Origin: an uncultured Methanosarcinaceae archaeon
GTDB taxonomy: Archaea; Halobacteriota; Methanosarcinia; Methanosarcinales; Methanosarcinaceae
Length of the DNA stretch: 24,000 nucleotides
Assembly: GCA_963847185.1 (NCBI GenBank)
Contig: CAWJYV010000009.1
Coordinates: 20,647-44,646, forward strand
Reading direction: 5' to 3'
A program made the position numbers and the translations under genes. Every line of letters begins with the position of its first letter. Within the stretch, counting starts at the first letter, position 1. The notes under the pieces were generated by a model. That model saw only the letters and a program-made list of their open reading frames with translations, was not told the DNA's origin and did not search any database. This document shows positions 3,163-21,320 of this stretch, piece after piece.

Positions 3163-4512
3163 TCACAGAGGCCCTGCATATTTACTCATAATATCTTCCA
3201 GCAAAGTAAGCCCTCCGCTGAACCCTGCGTAACTGTGCTCCAGCACAACACGGTCATATGAAGGGAATGAAACCGTCAGATGTATGGCATTGAATTCAGG
3301 ACCGGCTATATTACTTTCGAGAGAACTCGCAAGCAGGAATAAGAAATTCCTGTCTTTTAAATTCTGCCGAATACGATAGGCATCAACTTCATAAATTATC
3401 TCGGGCCATGCAGGAGTTTCAAGGCCAGTTGTCAGCTCCTCATTTATTAATTCACGGGCTTCTTCAGGTGGATTATCCGTTATCTGGACAATGTCAGGTA
3501 GATATCCCACCTCATTTGCAAGGTATTTTGTGATGCTTACAGCCGAATTACTGTCGGCAACAACTGCGAGATACGGATGTGGTCTGACGATCAAAAGTAT
3601 GTCGCCAATATATTCTGCAAATCTGTACGCCCGCCTTTCCTCTCTGGCAATCAGATCTTCAATAATATCTGCTGAAACATCTAACCTTTCTCCGACTACT
3701 CTCAGAAACTCTGAGGTTTGCTTGGGTCCGACCGGAACTCCAGGGAAGGAGATATAGGGAGTATCAAATTTTTCCTCAAGTTTTCTTGCAGTCTTGTGAC
3801 CAATCCAGCTTGAAAGAACAATATTATATTCGGCAGCAGGAATTTTTTTCAGGTTCTCAAGAGCATCAAACTCTCCTACGATCAGATTTGCCTTCAAGCC
3901 TATTTTTTCAAGAAGCGTTTTTATCTCTCTTGCTTCCCCTTTCCAGAATATATGCTGGGAAGGGACTAGACCGAATACATTTACCAGCCCTTTCTCTTTC
4001 GGAGCCTTTTCAAGGAGCTGATCGATTACAGCGTCGAAAAAGTATTCGTAGCCATCGTACGAGGTCCCTGCAAACCCTGAGGTATTCACATGTATGATCG
4101 GGACTTCAGGGTTCTTTTCTTTATACCCTCTGATAACCGACCCCACGTCATCTCCGATAAGTGAAGGGACACAGCCGGAGATCACTGCAAATAACTCTCC
4201 ATTTACAAGTTCTACCGTTGACTCAATAAGCTTTTCAAGTTTTTTCTCGCCGCCGAAAATCACATGCTCCTCGACTAAAGAGGAACAGGGTGTGCTTGTT
4301 CCTCCGTAAGGGCCTCCGGCATTCTGGCCGCCGCCGTAAAATTGGCCAAAAAGCTGCCCGATCCCACATCCTGCCCCGGAATGGAGGATAGGAACAACTC
4401 CAAATATGCCGACGGCAGTTGAATACGCCCCTCCGAGTGCGCAGGAGTAACGCGGCGCTTCGATCGCGCCTGAAATAAGATTGGCTGTCTGTAAAGATTC
4501 ATCAATTACCAT
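3163..4512 (-). CDS. nitrogenase component-1 beta-type subunit homolog (NifK/NifN-like)
   Basis: 449 aa. RYSCALGGAY, LHSGAGCGIG and VISGCVPSLIGDD align by eye with NifK C70, C95 and C153. NTSGFAGT aligns with the S188 region. AGGTG lies upstream of the ATG, 13 nt after the D-like stop. Confidence 0.8.
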   Translation of the reverse strand: MVIDESLQTANLISGAIEAPRYSCALGGAYSTAVGIFGVVPILHSGAGCGIGQLFGQFYGGGQNAGGPYGGTSTPCSSLVEEHVIFGGEKKLEKLIESTVELVNGELFAVISGCVPSLIGDDVGSVIRGYKEKNPEVPIIHVNTSGFAGTSYDGYEYFFDAVIDQLLEKAPKEKGLVNVFGLVPSQHIFWKGEAREIKTLLEKIGLKANLIVGEFDALENLKKIPAAEYNIVLSSWIGHKTARKLEEKFDTPYISFPGVPVGPKQTSEFLRVVGERLDVSADIIEDLIAREERRAYRFAEYIGDILLIVRPHPYLAVVADSNSAVSITKYLANEVGYLPDIVQITDNPPEEARELINEELTTGLETPAWPEIIYEVDAYRIRQNLKDRNFLFLLASSLESNIAGPEFNAIHLTVSFPSYDRVVLEHSYAGFSGGLTLLEDIMSKYAGPL

Positions 4513-4525
4513 GATTACACCTGAT

Positions 4526-6071
4526 TCAGTCCTCTGCTTGAAGATAATAAAGCGAATTAGGCTGTTTGTACCACCAGTCCTTGTATGTACTCTGGGTCTT
4601 TTCTTTCATAGTTCTCTGGTACGAATGACTTTTCAATGACTGTAAAAGGAAGTTTCCAAATGCAATCGCTCCCGTATAACCGCTCTGGGCACTCCAGGGA
4701 TGTGGATCTGACCTCAGGGCATGTACCCTTGTAACACCCTTGTCGCGCTTGAATGCACCTCCCTGGAACGGGCAGGTCATTGCAATATCGGGATCTCTCT
4801 GGTTTGTTATGTGGGTCTGTTCTGCAGCCTGGAAGGTATTTACCAGAATGTCAAAGTCCCCCATCTGGGTGATCAGTTTCTCAAGATCCCTGAGTATTAG
4901 GTTGTCAAAGTCCTGGCACATTGCGGCTGAAGATTTAAGGCCGAGTTCGTCAAAGTACGGGACCTGAGCCAGAAGCCTTCCCTGTCCAAGTGCGCCCAGC
5001 ACTTCTATCTTCTCTCCATTGCCTTTGAAATTTTCAAATTCACTTCTGATTGCTTTCAGCTTCGGAAGCCACTTTTCATGTTCCTCTTTGATAAGGGCTT
5101 CTACTTCCTTTTCTTTTCCAGTATGTCTTGCAATCTCCCTCAGCCATTCATCCGTATGTGCAACTCCCATCGGAGAGGGATATAGGAAATAGGGAACTCC
5201 ATATTCCTGTTCAAGCCCGCGGGCGAGATAGTCAGTATAAGTCGGGCACAGTGGTGCAGTAACTGCAGCTTCGGAAAGTTGCTCAAACTGCTCCACAGAT
5301 GCAAATTCGGGAATGAAGTTAACTCTTAGACCTACTTTTTCCAGCAGGCGTTTTATTTCCAGCCTATCCTGCCATGTATAGGAAAGCATACTTGCTACAT
5401 TTACGAGATCTTTCTGTTTCTTTTCCGGTTTTTTGACCAGGTACTTTCAGGACGGCGTGCCAGAAGGCATCATAGCCGGTCTGGACAAGCCTTGAGCGTG
5501 AGCCCTCACAATGGATAGGGACGATTGTTGCTTTTACCTGCGGCTGGTATTTTGCAACAACTCCTTCAATGTCCTCTCCGATTATTCCTGAGGTACAGGA
5601 TGTAAGTATGAAGATTGCTTTTGGATTGTACCGTTTCTCAGCCTCGAGGATTGCTGCGCCGAGTTTTTCTCCGGCACCGTAGACGACATCTTTTTCTCCT
5701 ATGTTTGTCGTAATCCAGTGAAGATCGTAATTGGCAGGGCGCCCAAGTTCAACAGGCACGTGCCTGTAGAGTTCACGGTATCCGAGAGCTGAAGACGAGC
5801 AGCCTACAGGTGCATGATATATAGCTACAGCATCACGGATTGTTCCGATCCTTACTGAAAGGTAGAAGTTCAGAACACAACCACTGGACTGCTGAAAATT
5901 CCTTCCTCTCTGCCTCAGGCAGCCTGTACGGGCTTCTTTTACAAGGTCACTTGCTTTTCCATACCAGACATTTATGCCGTTTGCCCTCTGTTCTCTGTTG
6001 GGACATGTGGCCCGTGATAGGTCGATTTTTTCTTCGATAAGTTCATTTTCAGTAAGTTCTGTTTCTGACAT
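4526..6071 (-). pseudogene. nitrogenase component-1 alpha-type subunit homolog (NifD-like), interrupted by a 1-nt frameshift near 5444-5448
   Basis: Track ORFs 5364..6326 and 4526..5389 are the N- and C-terminal halves of one NifD-like protein. The span of 1546 nt equals 3n+1. GGAG lies 9 nt upstream of ATG 6071 (MSETELTENELIEEK...). Joining at CTG AAA G TAC restores ...FWHAVLK/YLVKKPEKKQKDLVNVASMLSYTWQD... It could be a true pseudogene, a sequencing error or a recoding site. Confidence 0.75.
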
Positions 6072-6164
6072 CAATATTACTCCGTAAGATACCCGGTTTC
6101 CGTAATGAATTCGTCTCCATTTTATTCTGCTCCTGGCATCACTACGTCTAATTGAAATCAGTGG

Positions 6165-6232
6165 ATATATAAATCGGGAATTCAGCAAAAATGTGACCTT
6201 GTTTCTCATTATCCGAAATTTTGCGGCAAAAA
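6165..6232 (-). promoter_or_regulatory. nifD-like promoter: palindromic motif, 24 nt, second motif, 7 nt, TATA
   Basis: On the minus strand the order is TTTTTGCCGCAAAATT (6217-6232), 24 nt, ATTTTTGCTGAA (6181-6192), 7 nt, TTTATATAT (6165-6173). The same arrangement occurs at 12023-12090. Confidence 0.55.
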
Positions 6233-6470
6233 CCAATACCCTAACTTCCGTCTTTTTAGGCGCATATATTCTTTTCCGCATCTCTGAGAGGTCAGATGAT
6301 TGCTGTTTGGAAATTTTACCTTGCATCTGATGTGCTTAAGTTTAAGCGCATTAGTTGATATCAGGTGACATTTATGTGCTTAAAAATGCGGAACCAAGGC
6401 CAATATAGGAGAAATTCAAGAAAATTTACTAAAATTCATAAATCCCAGAAGAAGTTAGGGAGGAAATAAA

Positions 6471-6590
6471 ATGACCAAGATAACCGATGAATTAGTGATT
6501 CGTGGAAACCACATTAAAAACAGAATTGTAATGGCTCGTATGGTTACTTTTTCCTTTCATGGAGATTGCCCGACAAGAAATGATGAGTAA
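6471..6590 (+). pseudogene. 39-codon stub resembling the N-terminus of an Old-Yellow-Enzyme-type NADH:flavin oxidoreductase
   Basis: GGGAGG, 7 nt, then ATG. MTKITDELVIRGNHIKNRIVMARMVTFSFHGDCPTRNDE* contains the OYE-like LKNRIVMAPM-type block, then stops 25 nt before the HepT gene end. It is below the ORF-track size cut-off. Confidence 0.35.
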
Positions 6591-6614: not shown

Positions 6615-6965
6615 TTATTCGAAGTTTTTTTCTTCCAGTATCTTTTGAATATCCCTTTTCAATTCAGGCAATCTTTCATTTGCAGTATTCCAGACAACAC
6701 TCAAATTTACACCAAAATAAGCGTGGATTATAACATCCCTGATTCCTGCCATTTTTCTCCAGGGAACGAATGGATATTTCTTTCTTACCTCTTCAGGAAT
6801 ATGTTTTGTTGCTTCCCCAATAATTTCAAGTGCATGGTTTACAGCAAAAATTGTTTTTTCATCGGAAACAAATTGATCGAAGTCCATTCCTTCAATAAAA
6901 TGTTCACAACTTTCAATAGTTTCAAGGATATCTTGCAGATAATTTTCGACATCACGCTCAATCAT
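6615..6965 (-). CDS. hepT: HepT-like (DUF86) ribonuclease toxin
   Basis: 116 aa with an Rx4HxY motif (IRDVIIHAYF). It overlaps the upstream nucleotidyltransferase gene by 4 nt. Confidence 0.85.
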   Translation of the reverse strand: MIERDVENYLQDILETIESCEHFIEGMDFDQFVSDEKTIFAVNHALEIIGEATKHIPEEVRKKYPFVPWRKMAGIRDVIIHAYFGVNLSVVWNTANERLPELKRDIQKILEEKNFE

Positions 6966-7294
6966 ACCTGCACGACCTCTTCAAGAATCCTTTTCCCAAT
7001 CCTCGGTTTTAACGCGCTTTTCATTACGAGATCCACTTCCAGGCCAAGTATTTCCGAAAGCTCCTGTTTGAGCCCGATGAATTCTAGGAGGTCAGGTTCT
7101 TTAGAGAATTCTACAAGAATATCAAGATCGCTTTCTTCTTTTTGTTCTCCGCGAACGTAAGAACCAAAAATTCCCAGATAGCTGACGTTATATTCCTGTG
7201 TAAGTTTTGGAAGATGCTGACTAATAATTTTCGAGAAATATGCTGCATCCTTTGCTTTTTTGTCACTTGACTTGGTGATGGTATTAACTGTCAT
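6962..7294 (-). CDS. mntA: MntA-type minimal nucleotidyltransferase antitoxin
   Basis: 110 aa with LGIFGSYVRGEQKEESDLDILVEF (the GSxxRGx5SDxDxxV motif). It forms a type VII toxin-antitoxin arrangement with HepT. Confidence 0.85.
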   Translation of the reverse strand: MTVNTITKSSDKKAKDAAYFSKIISQHLPKLTQEYNVSYLGIFGSYVRGEQKEESDLDILVEFSKEPDLLEFIGLKQELSEILGLEVDLVMKSALKPRIGKRILEEVVQV

Positions 7295-7501
7295 GCATCC
7301 TCATAGTCTTGAGTTTAGGTTATTACTCGTGAAATTAGTCCTGTAATATATTTTTGTGTTCAGTATTTAAAAGTAAGGCTTAATTTACCTCTGAATTTTA
7401 GTCATATAACTTGCTAATCCTCTTCTGTGATTATACAGGATTTCATAATTTCGAGCTCTTGATATCTGATATTACCTTATTTTGATCCATTCATGAAACG
7501 G

Positions 7502-7897
7502 CTATGTTATATAGTCGAATAATACATTTTCGAGTTTTCTCTCAAATCTTGGACTCATTTTGCGTAGAGGAGTTTTAAGCGGCTCATAGAATCTGCCAAA
7601 TATTTTATAATAATCATTGAAAATAGGTTGAAGTTCCGAACTTATTTTATTATAAGGAGTTTTAAATGGTTCATAGAATCTGCGAGTTGTTCTACAGTTT
7701 TCACTGAAATTAAGTCTATAAACACCTATTTTGCTGATAAATTCGATATTTTCTTCGCGGAAAAATCCAATCTGCCTGTAGCCTACTTTGCCGTCGTCAT
7801 CATTTATAGTGAATTCTTCGTCATATAGTGAATTTTCAATTTCAGATTTATTTTCAAAAAAATTAGGATCAAATGAAGGGCTATCATTATTAAACAA
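7502..7897 (-). CDS. hypothetical protein with an internal RFYEPxKTPxxKxS duplication
   Basis: 131-aa ORF with a TTG start and no family I recognise. It has an acidic N-terminal half and two copies of RFYEP(F/L)KTP(Y/L)(N/R)K(I/M)S. Confidence 0.4.
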   Translation of the reverse strand: MFNNDSPSFDPNFFENKSEIENSLYDEEFTINDDDGKVGYRQIGFFREENIEFISKIGVYRLNFSENCRTTRRFYEPFKTPYNKISSELQPIFNDYYKIFGRFYEPLKTPLRKMSPRFERKLENVLFDYIT

Positions 7898-8200
7898 TAT
7901 TATTAATGGATATTCTAAAGGAATTTTTCCATTCCCGACATCATTTTGAAGATTCTTTAACTGCCCTCTTAATTTTTTTTCTACTGCGTTCTTTATTTTA
8001 TATCCTCTGCTCCCTTTACCTCCTGGAAAACGTATCTGAGCTTCTCAGTTTGGATCCATATGGCTTTCGTAATCATAAAGCAATGTAGCTATTTCAATTA
8101 AGACTTTTTCTACACTACACTTATCTTCGATTAATAAATCCAAATTTGATTTATAATCTTCAACGTAACTTATTACACGTATTAACACCTATCTACTTAT

Positions 8201-8713
8201 ATGATGGGGAAAGAACGCATTCCAATTGATCAAAAATTAGTTCTTGATGAAATCAACGTTTTAATCAAACATGAAACCAATTCAAGAGTGCTTAAAAGGC
8301 TCTATTTTGTAAAATTTAGATTTTTAGGGGATTCAGTAGAAGAAGCCGCTACTAAAGTTGGAGTTACTAAGAAAACAGGATATTACTGGCAAGATGCCTG
8401 GAATAAAGGCGGCTATGCCGCCTTAATACCAAATTTTGGTGGGGGTAGAAAATCCAAGCTTACCGATGATCAAATAAAAGAGTTAAGAATCTTGCTGGAA
8501 AAAAAAGATCATTGGACTACAAGAGAAGCTTTGGAGTTAATAAAGGAAAAATATGGGGTAGAGTATTCACAGAAACAAGTAGGAGTTATACTGCATAGTT
8601 TTAACATGTATCATTCAAAACCATATACTCTTGACTACAGAAGACCTAAAAATGCTGAGGAAATTTTAAAAAAAGTTAATAGAAGCAATTCCAGCATATA
8701 TTGGTCCAGATGA
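8201..8713 (+). CDS. IS630-family transposase, N-terminal HTH part (orfA)
   Basis: 170 aa with HTH-like segments (VEEAATKVGVTKKTGYYWQDAWNKGG; WTTREALELIKEKYGVEYSQKQVGVIL), typical of IS630 N-terminal regions. Confidence 0.8.
   Translation: MMGKERIPIDQKLVLDEINVLIKHETNSRVLKRLYFVKFRFLGDSVEEAATKVGVTKKTGYYWQDAWNKGGYAALIPNFGGGRKSKLTDDQIKELRILLEKKDHWTTREALELIKEKYGVEYSQKQVGVILHSFNMYHSKPYTLDYRRPKNAEEILKKVNRSNSSIYWSR
8668..8675 (+). other. A7G slippery run at the orfA/orfB frame junction
   Basis: The sequence is TTA AAA AAA GTT in the orfA frame. A -1 slip gives ...EEILKKK-LIEAIPAYIGPDD..., a contiguous transposase of about 345 aa. Confidence 0.5.
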
Positions 8714-8732
8714 TCAATATCTTATAGGTTTT

Positions 8733-9239
8733 TTGGATGAATCCTCACCACAAACAAAAGCAAATACGCAACGATTATGGTCATTTAAAAAGCCTTTGAT
8801 AACAAAAAATACAGATTATATAAAAGCAAATGCGTTTGCATTCTATTCGATTAATGGTAGAAATCTCATCGATTTTATGGAAAGTTCAAAAGCAGAAAAT
8901 GTATGTGAATTCCTTGAGAAAATTGTGGAACAGAATTTAGGGAAAAGAATAATTCTTGTTCTGGATAATTCGAGGTCACATCATGCTGATAAAACGGTAA
9001 GGAAAGCAAGAGAATTAAATATAACACTTGTGTTTCTTCCTCCTTATTCACCAGATCTAAATCCTGTAGAATTTGTATGGAAAACGATTAAGAGAGAAGT
9101 ATCTGTTAGATTTATTCAATCAAAAGAACATTTAAAAAAGATTATCAAAAATGAATTTATGAAAGTGGAAAACTCATTATCATTTGCAAAGAAATGGATG
9201 GAAACATTCAATCCACAAATAAAAAGTGTAATTTGTTGA
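8733..9239 (+). CDS. IS630-family transposase, DDE catalytic part (orfB, -1 frame relative to orfA)
   Basis: FLDESSPQ..., ILVLDNSRSHH and PPYSPDLNPVEFVWKTIKRE match the DDE triad context of IS630. This frame is already open from about 8672 (KLIEAIPAYIGPDDQYLIGFLDES). Confidence 0.8.
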   Translation: MDESSPQTKANTQRLWSFKKPLITKNTDYIKANAFAFYSINGRNLIDFMESSKAENVCEFLEKIVEQNLGKRIILVLDNSRSHHADKTVRKARELNITLVFLPPYSPDLNPVEFVWKTIKREVSVRFIQSKEHLKKIIKNEFMKVENSLSFAKKWMETFNPQIKSVIC

Positions 9240-11901: not shown

Positions 11902-11921
11902 AACAATAAGGTTTTTCCGCT

Positions 11922-11959
11922 AATTTATACTTTTCTGATTAATAAGAAAAATCAGAAAA
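11922..11959 (-). promoter_or_regulatory. TATA box abutted by a 10-bp perfect inverted repeat (candidate operator of the AbrB-like/hgcAB operon)
   Basis: On the minus strand, TTTTCTGATT-N9-AATCAGAAAA (arms at 11931-11940 and 11950-11959) is followed after 1 nt by TATAAATT (11922-11929). The TATA box lies 20 nt upstream of ATG 11901. Confidence 0.5.
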
Positions 11960-12022
11960 ATTATCAGAGTAATCTTTTAATTAGCCAGATAAGAAATGGA
12001 AATTCAATAAAATAGCAGGGAA

Positions 12023-12090
12023 TTTTTGCCGCAAAATTAAGAAAAACAGAATTTCAATGTCAATTTTTGCTGAAGTCTAAGCTTATAAAT
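12023..12090 (+). promoter_or_regulatory. nifH-like promoter: palindromic motif, 24 nt, second motif, 8 nt, TATA
   Basis: TTTTTGCCGCAAAATT (12023-12038), 24 nt, ATTTTTGCTGAA (12063-12074), 8 nt, TTATAAAT (12083-12090). ATG follows at 12123. Confidence 0.55.
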
Positions 12091-12122
12091 TGTATCTGTT
12101 TGTTTCTCCGTATGGTGATGAA

Positions 12123-13031
12123 ATGGCAAAAGCACGAAACATCGCAATCTACGGAAAAGGAGGTATCGGAAAATCGACTACCTCATCAAATCTTTCAGCA
12201 GCTCTTTCGGATCTTGGACTTACAGTAATGCAGATTGGCTGTGATCCTAAGAGCGACTCTACAAATAACCTGAGGGGAGGAAAATCGATTCCTTCAGTTC
12301 TTGATGCTTTAAGGAGTGGGAAAAGAATTGAAACCAGCGACATTGTCTATGAGGGCTTCAATGGGATCCTCTGTGTGGAAGCGGGAGGACCGGAGCCAGG
12401 AGTGGGATGCGCTGGCAGAGGTATTATTACTGCAATTGAACTCCTTAGGCAAAAAAATGTCTTTGAGGAGTTCAAACCTGATGTTGTAATCTATGATGTC
12501 CTCGGAGATGTCGTCTGTGGAGGGTTTTCAATCCCTATCCGTGAAGGTGTTGCAGAACAGGTCTACACTGTCGCATCCTCGGATTTCATGGCAATATATG
12601 CAGCTAACAATCTCTTTAAGGGAATAAGGAAATATGCAAACAACGGCGGTGCGCTGTTCAGTGGCATAATTGCAAATTCAATGAACCAGCAGATTCAAAA
12701 AGAGATAATAAATGATTTTGCAAATCAGACAAAGACAACGATTGCAGGATATGTACCCCGTTCGCTTGACGTTACGAGAAGTGAACTCAGAGGGCAAACT
12801 GTGGTCGAACATGCACCTGACTCTGAGCAGGCTGAACTGTACAGAGAACTTGCAAGGGGCATTTTGCACAATGATAAGAAATACGTTCCTGCTCCGCTGG
12901 AGTCCGAAGAACTCAAAGTATGGGCTGAAAGCTGGTCAGATATACTCCTCAGGGAGCGTGAACAGGTACATACAGGAGAAGTGAAAAGAAGCAATGTGGA
13001 AGGAAGAACGCTGGTAAGCTCGGAAGCATGA
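12123..13031 (+). CDS. NifH-family Fe-protein homolog (nitrogenase-like reductase ATPase)
   Basis: [14 protein letters not shown] (P-loop), CDPKSDST, and the cluster ligands in GVGCAGRG and [11 protein letters not shown] 12123 with GGTGA upstream is preferred over the track's TTG 12090. The protein is 302 aa with an extended C-terminus. Confidence 0.9.
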
Positions 13032-13530: not shown

Positions 13531-13571
13531 TCACAATTGTGATTGAAGATATTGATTGTTCACAATTGTGA
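13531..13571 (+). promoter_or_regulatory. two copies of the 12-bp palindrome TCACAATTGTGA upstream of ORF 13609
   Basis: Exact copies at 13531-13542 and 13560-13571, 29 nt centre to centre, lying 38-78 nt upstream of the ATG. Confidence 0.5.
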
Positions 13572-13608: not shown

Positions 13609-13896
13609 ATGGAATTAAGTGACCGAAATCTGAAGCAAAACAAGAGTTACCGAATTATGATTGATTCGGAGGGAGCGGGACATATTAGAATAATCAGACG
13701 TATCAACCTGAAGACTCTAATAGAAATTTTTAGGGAACTTTATCTTGAGCTTAAAAAAAATCCTGACAAAAGGCCCCATATAACAATATACGTTTCCCAT
13801 TCGATCTATGAGGAGATGTCGGATAATATGAAACACTTCCATGAATTTGCAGTCTCATGTATGGATGGGACATTTGATCTTACAATTATTAGCTAA
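13609..13896 (+). CDS. hypothetical protein (95 aa)
   Basis: ORF from the track with no family I recognise. It is preceded by the paired palindromes. Confidence 0.45.
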   Translation: MELSDRNLKQNKSYRIMIDSEGAGHIRIIRRINLKTLIEIFRELYLELKKNPDKRPHITIYVSHSIYEEMSDNMKHFHEFAVSCMDGTFDLTIIS

Positions 13897-14003: not shown

Positions 14004-14017
14004 GGTACAATTGTACC
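14004..14017 (+). promoter_or_regulatory. 14-bp perfect palindrome GGTACAATTGTACC with the same ACAATTGT core
   Basis: It lies 163 nt upstream of the wHTH gene. A half-site, CTCACAATG, lies about 30 nt upstream of ATG 14180. Confidence 0.4.
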
Positions 14018-14179
14018 AGGCATTTATTAAAGCAAATGTTTATTTTAGCCATATCCGGCCTTTCAGATATCCTTTTTGTACCCATTTGCATAATTTGAAC
14101 CAACAGGTTTAAAAATAAAGACAGCTTCTATGAAAATGGTGACTCACAATGAGGGATCGTTTTTGTTGTTAATGAACCA

Positions 14180-14446
14180 ATGAATAGCAGTCTGAATGAA
14201 ATTGATTATGAAAAGCTTGAAAAGCTGCCTCCATCTGCAAAGCTTGTGTTTAAAACTCTTGAAGCAAACGGACAAATGACACAGAAAGATTTAATTCGTG
14301 AAACAATTCTTCCTTCACGCACAGTAAGATATGCACTAAACAGGCTAAAGGAAGAAAAGATTCTGATGGAACGTTTTTATTTCCTTGACTCACGCCAGAG
14401 CCTTTACGAAATAAAGAGGCAGGTGAGTAATGCTCTTGCAGTCTGA
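14180..14446 (+). CDS. small winged-helix (MarR/TrmB-like) DNA-binding protein
   Basis: 88 aa. LPPSAKLVFKTLEANGQMTQKDLIRETILPSRTVRYALNRLKEEKILMERF is a typical archaeal wHTH layout. Confidence 0.7.
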   Translation: MNSSLNEIDYEKLEKLPPSAKLVFKTLEANGQMTQKDLIRETILPSRTVRYALNRLKEEKILMERFYFLDSRQSLYEIKRQVSNALAV

Positions 14447-15041: not shown

Positions 15042-15092
15042 GTTGTTTTTACTTCTATGTTGTTTTTATTTCTATGTTGTTTTTACTTCTGT
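15042..15092. repeat. 17-bp tandem repeat x3
   Basis: GTTGTTTTTACTTCTAT / GTTGTTTTTATTTCTAT / GTTGTTTTTACTTCTGT at 15042, 15059 and 15076. The third copy covers the stop and last codons of the flavoprotein gene. Confidence 0.9.
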
Positions 15093-15781
15093 GCCTCTAG
15101 GGCCTTCTGTCGCTTTACTAACCTGGCCCCTATCTCAAAAGCTTTCTGACAGTCTTGTGGAAAAACTTCTTCGCGCCTTTTTGCTTTTTCTTTGGGATCA
15201 ACTATATCTGCGACATACTTTGAATAGTCATCGAACTGATATGTATCGGTACTGCACAGTGATTCGGAATATCCAAAAATTCTCGTTGCAATTCCTTCAT
15301 TTAATTCAATAGTTTTATTAAGTCCAAAAAAATCAAAGTGTTCTTCTTTTGCACCCATGGTGTAAATGTACCCCACAGAGATGTTTTTCGGGTACAGTGA
15401 TACTGGATTAGCAGAGTAAACTAGATATGGAAATATATACCGCTCCATGAATGATCTCATCTCGCCTGTGGAATTTCCAAGGTAGATGGGTGATCCAAGT
15501 ATAACTGCATCAGCATCTTTCAGCCTTTCCAGCACAGGTGTCAGTTCATCCTTCATTGCGCATTTTCCATAGCTTTTTCCATCTTTTACTTTGCAGGCAA
15601 AACAACTTGTGCATCCTTTAAAATTGAGGTCATAGAGATGGATTATTTCTGTTTCTGCACCTTCCGAAGCTGCACCTTCAAGAGCTTTCTCAAGCAGAGT
15701 TGCCGTATTCCATTTCTTCCTGGGGCTTCCATTTATTGCTATTACTTTCAAATTTTTGCCTCCATTTTTTCTCCTGATCAT
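15083..15781 (-). CDS. flavodoxin-fold NAD(P)H-dependent FMN reductase / iron-sulfur-flavoprotein-like protein
   Basis: KVIAINGSPRKKWNT and ILGSPIY are FMN_red hallmarks. CTSCFAC-x10-C is a compact Cys cluster as in Isf-type proteins. The true start may be TTG at 15751, which has GGAGG 7 nt upstream. Confidence 0.8.
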   Translation of the reverse strand: MIRRKNGGKNLKVIAINGSPRKKWNTATLLEKALEGAASEGAETEIIHLYDLNFKGCTSCFACKVKDGKSYGKCAMKDELTPVLERLKDADAVILGSPIYLGNSTGEMRSFMERYIFPYLVYSANPVSLYPKNISVGYIYTMGAKEEHFDFFGLNKTIELNEGIATRIFGYSESLCSTDTYQFDDYSKYVADIVDPKEKAKRREEVFPQDCQKAFEIGARLVKRQKALEAQK

Positions 15782-21048: not shown

Positions 21049-21320
21049 TTTTAGTCCCTATTCAGTTACACCCGTTAGTTAGGGTTTACCTAAGTATATA
21101 GTTTTCGGTGGTATCGAGTCTTAATACTTATCAAATTTTTCAGATTCCCTTATTCCCCTAATTCTTCTGTTTCCCCTATTCGTTTCCTGATTTTTTCCAT
21201 TCTTTTGCTTCTCCTGCGTTTTTTGCTGAATTCTGGGTTTTAAGAAAAAGAATTTTTCGACAGGTTTGAGTTTCAGAAGTTGGCGATTATTTTAATAATA
21301 TCAGTGTATAATACAAGCGC

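Follow-up and report, generated by a model that had tools for sequence, protein, structure and literature searches.

A 24,000-nucleotide stretch of DNA from an uncultured Methanosarcinaceae archaeon (GenBank assembly GCA_963847185.1, contig CAWJYV010000009.1, positions 20,647 to 44,646; hereafter the window) encodes a nitrogenase-like enzyme in two separate transcription units, each preceded by the same two-site promoter module, which is the subject of this report. On the plus strand lies a gene for a NifH-like (MarH-like) Fe protein (H; 12123..13031), which matched profile TIGR01287 with 387 bits (3.4e-116), just below the family cut-off, and whose orthologues in Methanosarcina loci are 91-96% identical. 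On the minus strand, profile matches identified a NifD-like (MarD-like) gene (D; 4526..6071) and a NifK-like (MarK-like) gene (K; 3163..4512), the latter also matching MarK in the PDB. The original prediction, made from the sequence of the window, held that these units share an identical promoter architecture through which a dedicated transcription factor co-regulates both halves of the enzyme. Its naming of the H and D genes holds, with the amendment that the D gene is interrupted here. A 1-nt insertion near 5444 (GAAAGTACC versus GAAATACC in relatives) splits its frame into two open reading frames (ORFs; 6071-5364 and 5389-4526), while the relatives have an intact gene of 514 aa. The insertion reflects either a pseudogene or a sequencing error.

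Direct reading of the window defined the module at both promoters. A 16-mer, TTTTTGCCGCAAAATT, occupies 12023-12038 on the plus strand ahead of H and the reverse complement of 6217-6232 ahead of D. A 12-mer, ATTTTTGCTGAA, follows at 12063-12074 for H and at the reverse complement of 6181-6192 for D, leaving a spacer of exactly 24 nt in each case (12039-12062 and 6193-6216). Downstream stands a predicted TATA-like box, TTATAAAT at 12083-12090 for H (8 nt past the second motif) and TTTATATAT as the reverse complement of 6165-6173 for D (7 nt past it). The coordinates, the spacer and the TATA distances first proposed were thereby confirmed to the base. Both inverted motif pairs were also recovered independently by a repeat search of the window. 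Within these 24 kb, TTTTGCNGCAAAA and ATTTTTGCTGAA have exact copies at the two promoters only. An analytic estimate for a sequence of this length and composition gave a chance expectation of ~1e-8 for a 16-mer and a 12-mer at identical spacing, which bears out the original view that the coincidence was very unlikely by chance.

Alignment of site 1 (ATTTTTGCCGCAA) with site 2 (ATTTTTGCTGAAG) showed that the two are direct repeats of a single element, ATTTTTGCYGMA. The offset between their TTGC cores is 41 bp, about four helical turns, which would place both sites on the same face of the DNA. The distal copy is additionally palindromic in Methanosarcina (TTGC-C-GCAA). The proximal copy ends 7-8 bp short of the TATA box, directly upstream of the expected position of the transcription factor B recognition element (BRE). 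Transcripts are predicted to start ~11 nt (H) and ~80 nt (D) before the start codons. The H gene has a Shine-Dalgarno (SD) sequence, GGTGAT, at 12114-12119 and its ATG at 12123, and the D gene has an SD sequence, GGAG, at 6080-6083 and its ATG at 6071. The predicted 5' untranslated region (UTR) of D, ~80 nt long, is conserved in part. A hairpin within it (GGAGAC...GTCTCT, before the SD) was considered as a structured RNA and rejected, as its 6 predicted pairs showed several breaks and no compensatory change among relatives. The window contained no Rfam matches.

Neither promoter carries the known nitrogen-regulatory operator. Control of methanogen nif promoters by NrpR and NrpA involves the operator GGAA-N6-TTCC. 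No match to this operator was present in 6072-6330 or 11902-12122, even with one mismatch allowed, and its counts across the whole window were at chance level. The original prediction had likewise set the motif apart from the NrpR operator. A possible third copy of the module at 21219-21240 was also discarded. The sequence there, TTTTTTGCTGAATTCTGGGTTT, matches D site 2 and its flank at 18 of 21 positions, has neither site 1 nor a TATA box, and is probably a chance resemblance. It lies upstream of an MgtE-like gene.

To delineate the conservation of the module, we performed a protein-anchored scan with one genome per species. This retrieved 46 loci, of which 17 were of Methanosarcina type, with K proteins 86-95% identical and Methanosarcina hadiensis closest. 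Sequences upstream of the start codon were aligned for 17 D-like and 6 H-like genes, and identity was measured on 19 D-type and 8 H-type promoters, a set found by protein homology that includes complete genomes added later. In both alignments, the distal upstream sequence was unalignable. Conservation began sharply at the first motif and extended over spacer, second motif and TATA box. Mean pairwise identity was 0.28-0.35 over the 80 nt upstream of site 1, 0.89-0.94 in site 1, 0.83-0.88 in the spacer, and 0.91-0.93 in site 2.

The invariant positions coincide with the elements described above. In the H promoter, conservation sets in at site 1 (ATTTTTGCCGCAAAATT, 12022..12038), whose TTGC-C-GCAA core is invariant in 19 distinct H promoters. 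TTGCTGA of site 2 is invariant across the H set, as is TATAAAT of the TATA box in the H alignment. For D, the alignments agreed with the direct reading at site 1, site 2 and the TATA box. No indels were found in the two-site spacing across 45 distinct promoters. The module was present upstream of the H-like and D-like orthologues in every Methanosarcina-type locus that covers the upstream region, the opposite of the absence from orthologs that would have spoken against the original prediction.

Comparison of the two promoter types with each other gave a different picture for sites and spacer. H and D share 14 of 18 conserved positions in site 1 and 9 of 14 in site 2, but only 5 of 21 in the spacer. 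The spacer is thus strongly conserved within each promoter type but not between types. With unrelated spacers and near-identical sites, the two promoters share two short sites at a fixed spacing rather than a duplicated block.

The pair is also specific to these genes. No further exact copies of TTTTGCNGCAAAA occurred in ~230 kb of Methanosarcina flanks beyond these promoters. A scan of 241 million metagenome records for TTTGCCGCAAAA-N(29-31)-TTGCTGA returned 25 matches at a gap of 29 nt, 49 at 30 nt and 24 at 31 nt. Matches with gaps of 29 and 31 nt all fell in unrelated, mostly coding sequence. The 24 excess matches at 30 nt were all H-type (15) or D-type (9) promoters beside the expected genes. 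Under this strict pattern, no third gene type in Methanosarcina carried the pair. As the excess consists of H and D promoters only, the pair is neither a general promoter element nor a repeat family, and neither flanks nor metagenomes showed it to be common upstream of unrelated genes. Together, conservation and specificity support the original proposal of a shared, dedicated cis-regulatory architecture that would co-regulate both units.

Outside Methanosarcina, we searched 478 kb of other methanogen loci for pairs of TTGCC and TTGCT with offsets between 30 and 52. Matches numbered 7 at offset 41 and 3 at offset 40, with 0-4 at each other offset. Of the 10 matches at offsets 40 and 41, 8 lay 97-201 nt upstream of genes and were followed by a TATA-like box. 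In Methanoregula, the layout TTGCC-(41, once 40)-TTGCT-TATA stands before H and before two D genes. It also stands before an ABC transporter operon that directly follows K and includes an NMT1-type substrate-binding gene. In Methanolobus chelungpuianus, the same layout precedes an ABC transporter. These transporter sites lie at position 1774 on the minus strand of locus L015 (equivalent to 13302 of L154) and at 12295 of L153. The Methanothrix region between H and a winged-helix gene contains TTGCCGCAA. Judged by these sequences, the layout is older than the genus, and in other genera it takes in transport genes. Its occurrence before ABC transporter operons suggests that the regulon includes uptake of the substrate of the enzyme.

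These sites also clarified the nature of the element. The right arm of the palindrome is not kept at the Methanoregula and Methanolobus sites (TTGCCGATA, TTGCCACAT), which supports the reading of the two motifs as a direct repeat. The first motif is a palindrome in Methanosarcina, as first described, but its palindromy is not conserved in Methanoregula.

The 6-kb separation of the two units in the window is secondary, because relatives have back-to-back divergent promoters. In complete genomes of Methanosarcina thermophila and several metagenome-assembled genomes, H and DK are divergent neighbours 300-400 bp apart. Each unit in these compact loci retains a module of its own, and the site-1 centres lie at distances of 54, 84 or 108 bp. 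With no fixed spacing between the two palindromes, there is no indication of a joint complex. The DNA between the units differs among genomes, and the module always stays with its gene. In the window, the intervening DNA comprises a HepT/MntA-like pair, an IS630-like element, a DUF3795 gene, and hgcB, hgcA and hgcC. A separate remnant lies beside the D promoter. A gene for an OYE-like flavin oxidoreductase, which L003, L014 and other loci hold intact and divergently oriented to D, is reduced in the window to 32 codons (6471-6566) and cut off by inserted DNA (6615-9239) that holds the HepT/MntA-like toxin-antitoxin pair and an IS630-like transposase in two ORFs.

The genes hgcC-hgcA-hgcB are divergent from H in six Methanosarcina-type loci, and the original prediction had allowed that the first palindrome might also influence the hgcC/hgcAB promoter. 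This part of it was not supported. The module follows H whatever the neighbour, and the hgcC side has its own conserved block (11902-11969) with a TATA box and, immediately upstream, an inverted repeat, TTTTCTGAT...ATCAGAAAA (11931-11939 / 11951-11959). Since this block is separate and its distance to the H module varies by ~120 nt among loci, we rejected the palindrome as part of the hgcC promoter. The TTTTCTGAT...ATCAGAAAA repeat is itself a candidate operator for the mercury-methylation genes.

Searches against solved structures placed the enzyme closest to methylthio-alkane reductase (MarHDK), and the identities of the matching PDB entries were confirmed. The best PDB match of the K protein was Rhodospirillum rubrum MarK (9D9U/9FMG; 1.7e-84, with the next family at 2.9e-27), and that of the intact 514-aa D orthologue was R. 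rubrum MarD (2e-75). The next-best families for the K- and D-like proteins, NifE and NifD, reached 1e-27 to 1e-29. We use the label Mar-like because MarK and MarD lead NifE and NifD by so wide a margin, with C-S cleavage as a putative activity. No radical SAM gene, such as that for the NifB-like MarB, was found among the window ORFs scanned against Pfam and NCBIfam or among the conserved neighbours; MarB or NifB may be encoded elsewhere. A small NifX-like gene lies near the cluster in L010 and L019, and metX/metY-like genes adjoin it in L007, L010 and L019. In bacteria, Mar is induced by sulfate limitation (PMC13474568).

To look for regulators near the module, all ORFs of 35 Methanosarcina-type loci were clustered. 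Only one DNA-binding protein was consistently nearby, an 88-aa winged-helix protein with an HTH_24 domain (Pfam; window 14180-14446). Its gene (14153..14446, plus strand, annotated ATG at 14180) lies two genes downstream of H, and the order H, orf95, winged-helix gene was constant in at least 11 Methanosarcina loci. In five genera, the winged-helix gene is linked to nitrogenase-like and/or sulfur genes. Its neighbours are nitrogenase-like HDK, TusA, DsrE, NMT1-type ABC and PALP genes in Methanoregula; SepCysS-like, O-acetylhomoserine-sulfhydrylase-like and PALP genes in Methanomethylovorans; and ThiF, ThiS, MoaE, cysteine desulfurase and rhodanese in Methanolobus. In Methanothrix it is divergent from an operon of H, D and K, behind which lie cysteine-synthase-like and acetyltransferase genes. 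Constant synteny with H-orf95, together with these sulfur and nitrogenase-like contexts elsewhere, makes the protein a putative sulfur-linked regulator and the best local, if weakly supported, candidate for the factor that binds the module. Its predicted model bears a generic resemblance to MarR, Lrp or TFE-alpha with no significant PDB match, and the family was not assigned.

The intervening gene, orf95 (13609..13896, plus strand), encodes a conserved hypothetical protein of 95 aa that is restricted to Methanosarcinaceae and always lies between the H-like and winged-helix genes. Its fold was predicted as beta-beta-beta-alpha-beta-alpha-beta (pLDDT 88), and no solved structure matched it. We considered orf95 as the missing ligand domain of a split Lrp protein and rejected this, as the confident model gave no RAM-like or other significant PDB match.

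A second palindrome accompanies these downstream genes. Two copies of TCACAATTGTGA lie upstream of orf95 (13531-13542 and 13560-13571), and the related GTACAATTGTAC precedes the winged-helix gene (14005-14016). The palindrome has a ACAATTGT core. Palindromes with this core also lie upstream of the metX/metY-like methionine genes in L007, L010 and L019, and at or near winged-helix promoters in Methanolobus, Methanomethylovorans and Methanoregula. Positions outside the window are 16325 in L007, 18320 and 18533 in L010, 6412 in L019, 6037 in L012, and 3802 in L040. This palindrome would seem to be an operator, either of a separate regulon related to sulfur or methionine or of the winged-helix protein itself.

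Our data are probably best explained by a two-copy ATTTTTGCYGMA module on which one factor, most probably an activator, acts in both promoters to couple H with DK. One sequence-specific transcription factor would occupy both copies in the H and D promoters, and so couple expression of the Fe protein (H) with that of the catalytic components (D, K) even with the genes kilobases apart. It would act as an activator by helping to recruit TATA-binding protein (TBP) and transcription factor B (TFB). Sulfur or cysteine limitation would be the signal, and the small winged-helix protein encoded two genes downstream of H would be the factor. The parts of this model differ in strength. The two-site module itself, with its conservation, its specificity and its fixed distance from TATA, is shown by the sequences. 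That a single factor would read both promoters and couple H with DK is well supported by the sequence comparisons. Activation is moderately supported, as the predicted arrangement places the sites upstream of BRE/TATA and not over or past them. A sulfur-related signal is likewise moderately supported, by analogy with the sulfate-limitation control of bacterial Mar and by the Mar-like identity of the enzyme and the metX/metY and other sulfur-gene context.

Several observations weigh against this explanation or parts of it. Given the strong conservation of the spacer within each promoter type, the functional unit may extend beyond the two sites, or more than one protein may be involved. Further regulon members with a looser or single-site layout may lie outside the flanks and the strict-pattern scan. 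The frameshifted D gene may indicate that the regulon is decaying in this genome. With regard to the factor, L019 and L040 keep the module and have no winged-helix gene in the retrieved flank. The ACAATTGT-core palindrome is at least an equal candidate target for the winged-helix protein; were it the operator of that protein, the factor for the TTGCY repeats would possibly be encoded elsewhere. Finally, the TATA boxes and transcription starts are predicted only, and a site next to the BRE can also repress.

The strongest rival builds on this last point. Both copies would be repressor operators, with a factor on the proximal copy by BRE/TATA cooperating with the distal copy to block TBP and TFB until an inducing signal arrives. 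Site 2 ends 7-8 bp from the TATA box, such that a bound protein could occlude the BRE, and two same-face sites at a distance of 41 bp would lend themselves to looping or to cooperative binding. Repressors are, moreover, common among archaeal regulators of nitrogen and sulfur genes. However, most archaeal repressors act over the TATA box or the start, and neither site overlaps the TATA box or the predicted start. The distal copy, strongly conserved ~55 bp upstream of the TATA box, is a better fit to an upstream activating arrangement. We consider repression credible but rather unlikely.

It is highly improbable that the two promoters descend from a duplicated segment kept for general promoter strength, such as an extended BRE or A/T-tract curvature, with no specific factor. 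Both promoters are indeed A/T-rich, with T-tracts flanking a GC core, and the whole 70-nt block including the spacer is conserved within each type. Yet duplication does not sit well with near-identical sites around unrelated spacers (5 of 21), and in Methanoregula and Methanolobus the two sites reappear at this spacing within sequence that is otherwise unrelated, and before a third gene type. A general promoter element would also be expected at many genes, whereas flanks and scan had the pair at H and D alone. Chance resemblance, or a dispersed repeat or mobile-element remnant upstream of both genes, has in its favor the mobile DNA between the units of the window (IS630-like element and HepT/MntA pair) but is effectively refuted by the alignments, the metagenome scan and the compact loci, given an expectation of ~1e-8, an element found at H and D promoters alone in window, flanks and scan, and a module present in genomes that lack the inserted DNA.

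The module resembles some known regulatory systems. Archaeal Lrp-type activators, such as Ptr2 of Methanocaldococcus jannaschii, bind upstream activating sites and probably activate by helping to recruit TBP and TFB. As with Ptr2, two sites lie immediately upstream of BRE/TATA, and the candidate factor has a small winged-helix DNA-binding domain. In contrast to Ptr2, the site sequence is unrelated and consists of direct repeats 41 bp apart rather than paired palindromes, while the candidate protein has HTH_24 only, with no RAM/ACT ligand domain, and its binding is a prediction. NrpR and NrpA offer a parallel of another kind, as they provide dedicated regulation of nitrogenase-family genes in Methanosarcina and Methanococcus via promoter-proximal sites. 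They differ from the present case not only in their operator but also in gene context, which here is a Mar-like enzyme among sulfur rather than nitrogen genes.

A further counterpart is bacterial. In R. rubrum, the LysR-type regulator SalR exerts sulfate-limitation control of marBHDK and is itself apparently under a second layer of control (PMC13474568). Both cases would combine a Mar-type system with a dedicated factor (here a predicted one) and the co-regulation of separated nitrogenase-like loci. Unlike the SalR system, the promoters described here are archaeal BRE/TATA promoters with a different candidate factor, no MarB-like gene adjoins the window genes, and the sulfur response is read from gene context only.

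Expression of the winged-helix gene seems to require an unusual event at the level of translation. A short upstream ORF, ATG AGG GAT CGT TTT TGT TGT TAA (MRDRFCC; 14149..14172, plus strand), has its own perfect SD sequence and overlaps the start of the regulator frame. The nucleotides of this leader are identical through ATGAGGGATCGTTTTTGTTG in 12 of 12 distinct Methanosarcina sequences. The regulator frame is +1 relative to the leader and opens at the TGA inside its A-TGA-G in all 17 distinct sequences, from 5 genera. From the leader to the winged-helix core, the sequence is conserved at the protein level and its indels are in frame, giving 92, 93, 97 or 105 codons. This stretch therefore behaves as coding, though no start codon recurs consistently in it. 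In the regulator frame, an ATG, GTG or TTG first occurs at codon 10, 14, 21, 32 or 38, depending on the species, and a start at codon 38 falls inside the DNA-binding domain in L008 and L088. In most species, the regulator frame has no canonical start codon before that domain. Database gene calls for the regulator span 56-96 aa, some of them starting at ATC or ATA.

The zero-frame codons of the leader are CGU UUU UGU in four genera and CUA CUU UGC in Methanothrix. In both sets, the P-site tRNA would re-pair with UUU after slipping by +1, and the zero-frame codon that comes next encodes Cys. Our leading, if tentative, reading of these sequences is a programmed +1 frameshift that slow decoding of the cysteine codon would promote. 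Near-cognate initiation, or the use of truncated forms, is a possible alternative. In Methanoregula, an in-frame GTG immediately follows the TGA, and ordinary initiation may therefore be ancestral.

Programmed +1 frameshifting serves as a sensor in bacterial prfB and eukaryotic antizyme. As in those genes, the short zero-frame ORF of the leader ends soon after a putative slippery codon that could re-pair perfectly in the +1 frame (UUU_U or CUU_U), an SD-like stretch lies just upstream, and the main ORF in the +1 frame has no start codon of its own in most species. The proposed slow codon differs in being a cysteine sense codon rather than a stop, and the gene differs in encoding a transcription regulator; the frameshift itself is a prediction from sequence. 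Methanogens make cysteine on tRNA-Cys, such that low sulfur would starve the leader Cys codon. A sulfur-starvation circuit could follow, in which the winged-helix regulator would be produced only upon stalling of ribosomes at the Cys codon of the 6-7-codon leader (MRDRFC) and a +1 slip on the U-run. The module would be the target of the regulator, which would thus activate both halves of the Mar-like enzyme, and the enzyme would release sulfur from organosulfur compounds. We regard this extension as speculative and quite unlikely. If true, it would be a complete sulfur-starvation circuit built on a frameshift that senses a sense codon, and the first cellular +1 frameshift in archaea. A 2021 review lists one frameshift as proven in archaea, which is of the -1 type, and no cellular +1 frameshift (PMC8211752). 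If it holds up, recoding of the regulator matters for archaeal translation itself.

Nitrogenase-like enzymes outside nitrogen fixation are widespread, and a 2026 review counts the function of the many uncharacterised systems among the greatest challenges of the field and sees a key barrier in that genetically tractable hosts are lacking (PMC13474568). Our data suggest that a dedicated circuit controlling a Mar-like system is maintained in methanogens from two orders or more. The module would tie the separated H and DK units, plus ABC transporter operons in other genera, into one regulon. Its gene context points to sulfur metabolism, and the enzyme is probably sulfur-scavenging. Factor-binding sites upstream of archaeal promoters are familiar as such. 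We found no description in the literature of the promoter module or of the regulation of methanogen Mar-like systems, and full-text searches for TTGCCGCAA or TTGCGGCAA returned unrelated primers and sites only. The module occurs in cultured Methanosarcina with complete genomes, among them M. thermophila and M. hadiensis. Its practical value is that it offers exact probes and marks out a regulon for a family of uncharacterised enzymes in methanogens that can be cultivated.

Two tandem arrays were also observed in the window. A 28-nt unit (CTAATAAACTTAAAGAAACCAAAGTTTT) is repeated in about four copies at 2329-2440, in the gap that separates purE from the end of the K-like gene; eight related loci have a methyltransferase gene after K instead. 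A 17-nt unit (GTTGTTTTTACTTCTATG) occurs three times in tandem at 15042-15093, spanning the 3' end of, and the sequence just past, an FMN-reductase-like gene (15083-15781, minus strand).

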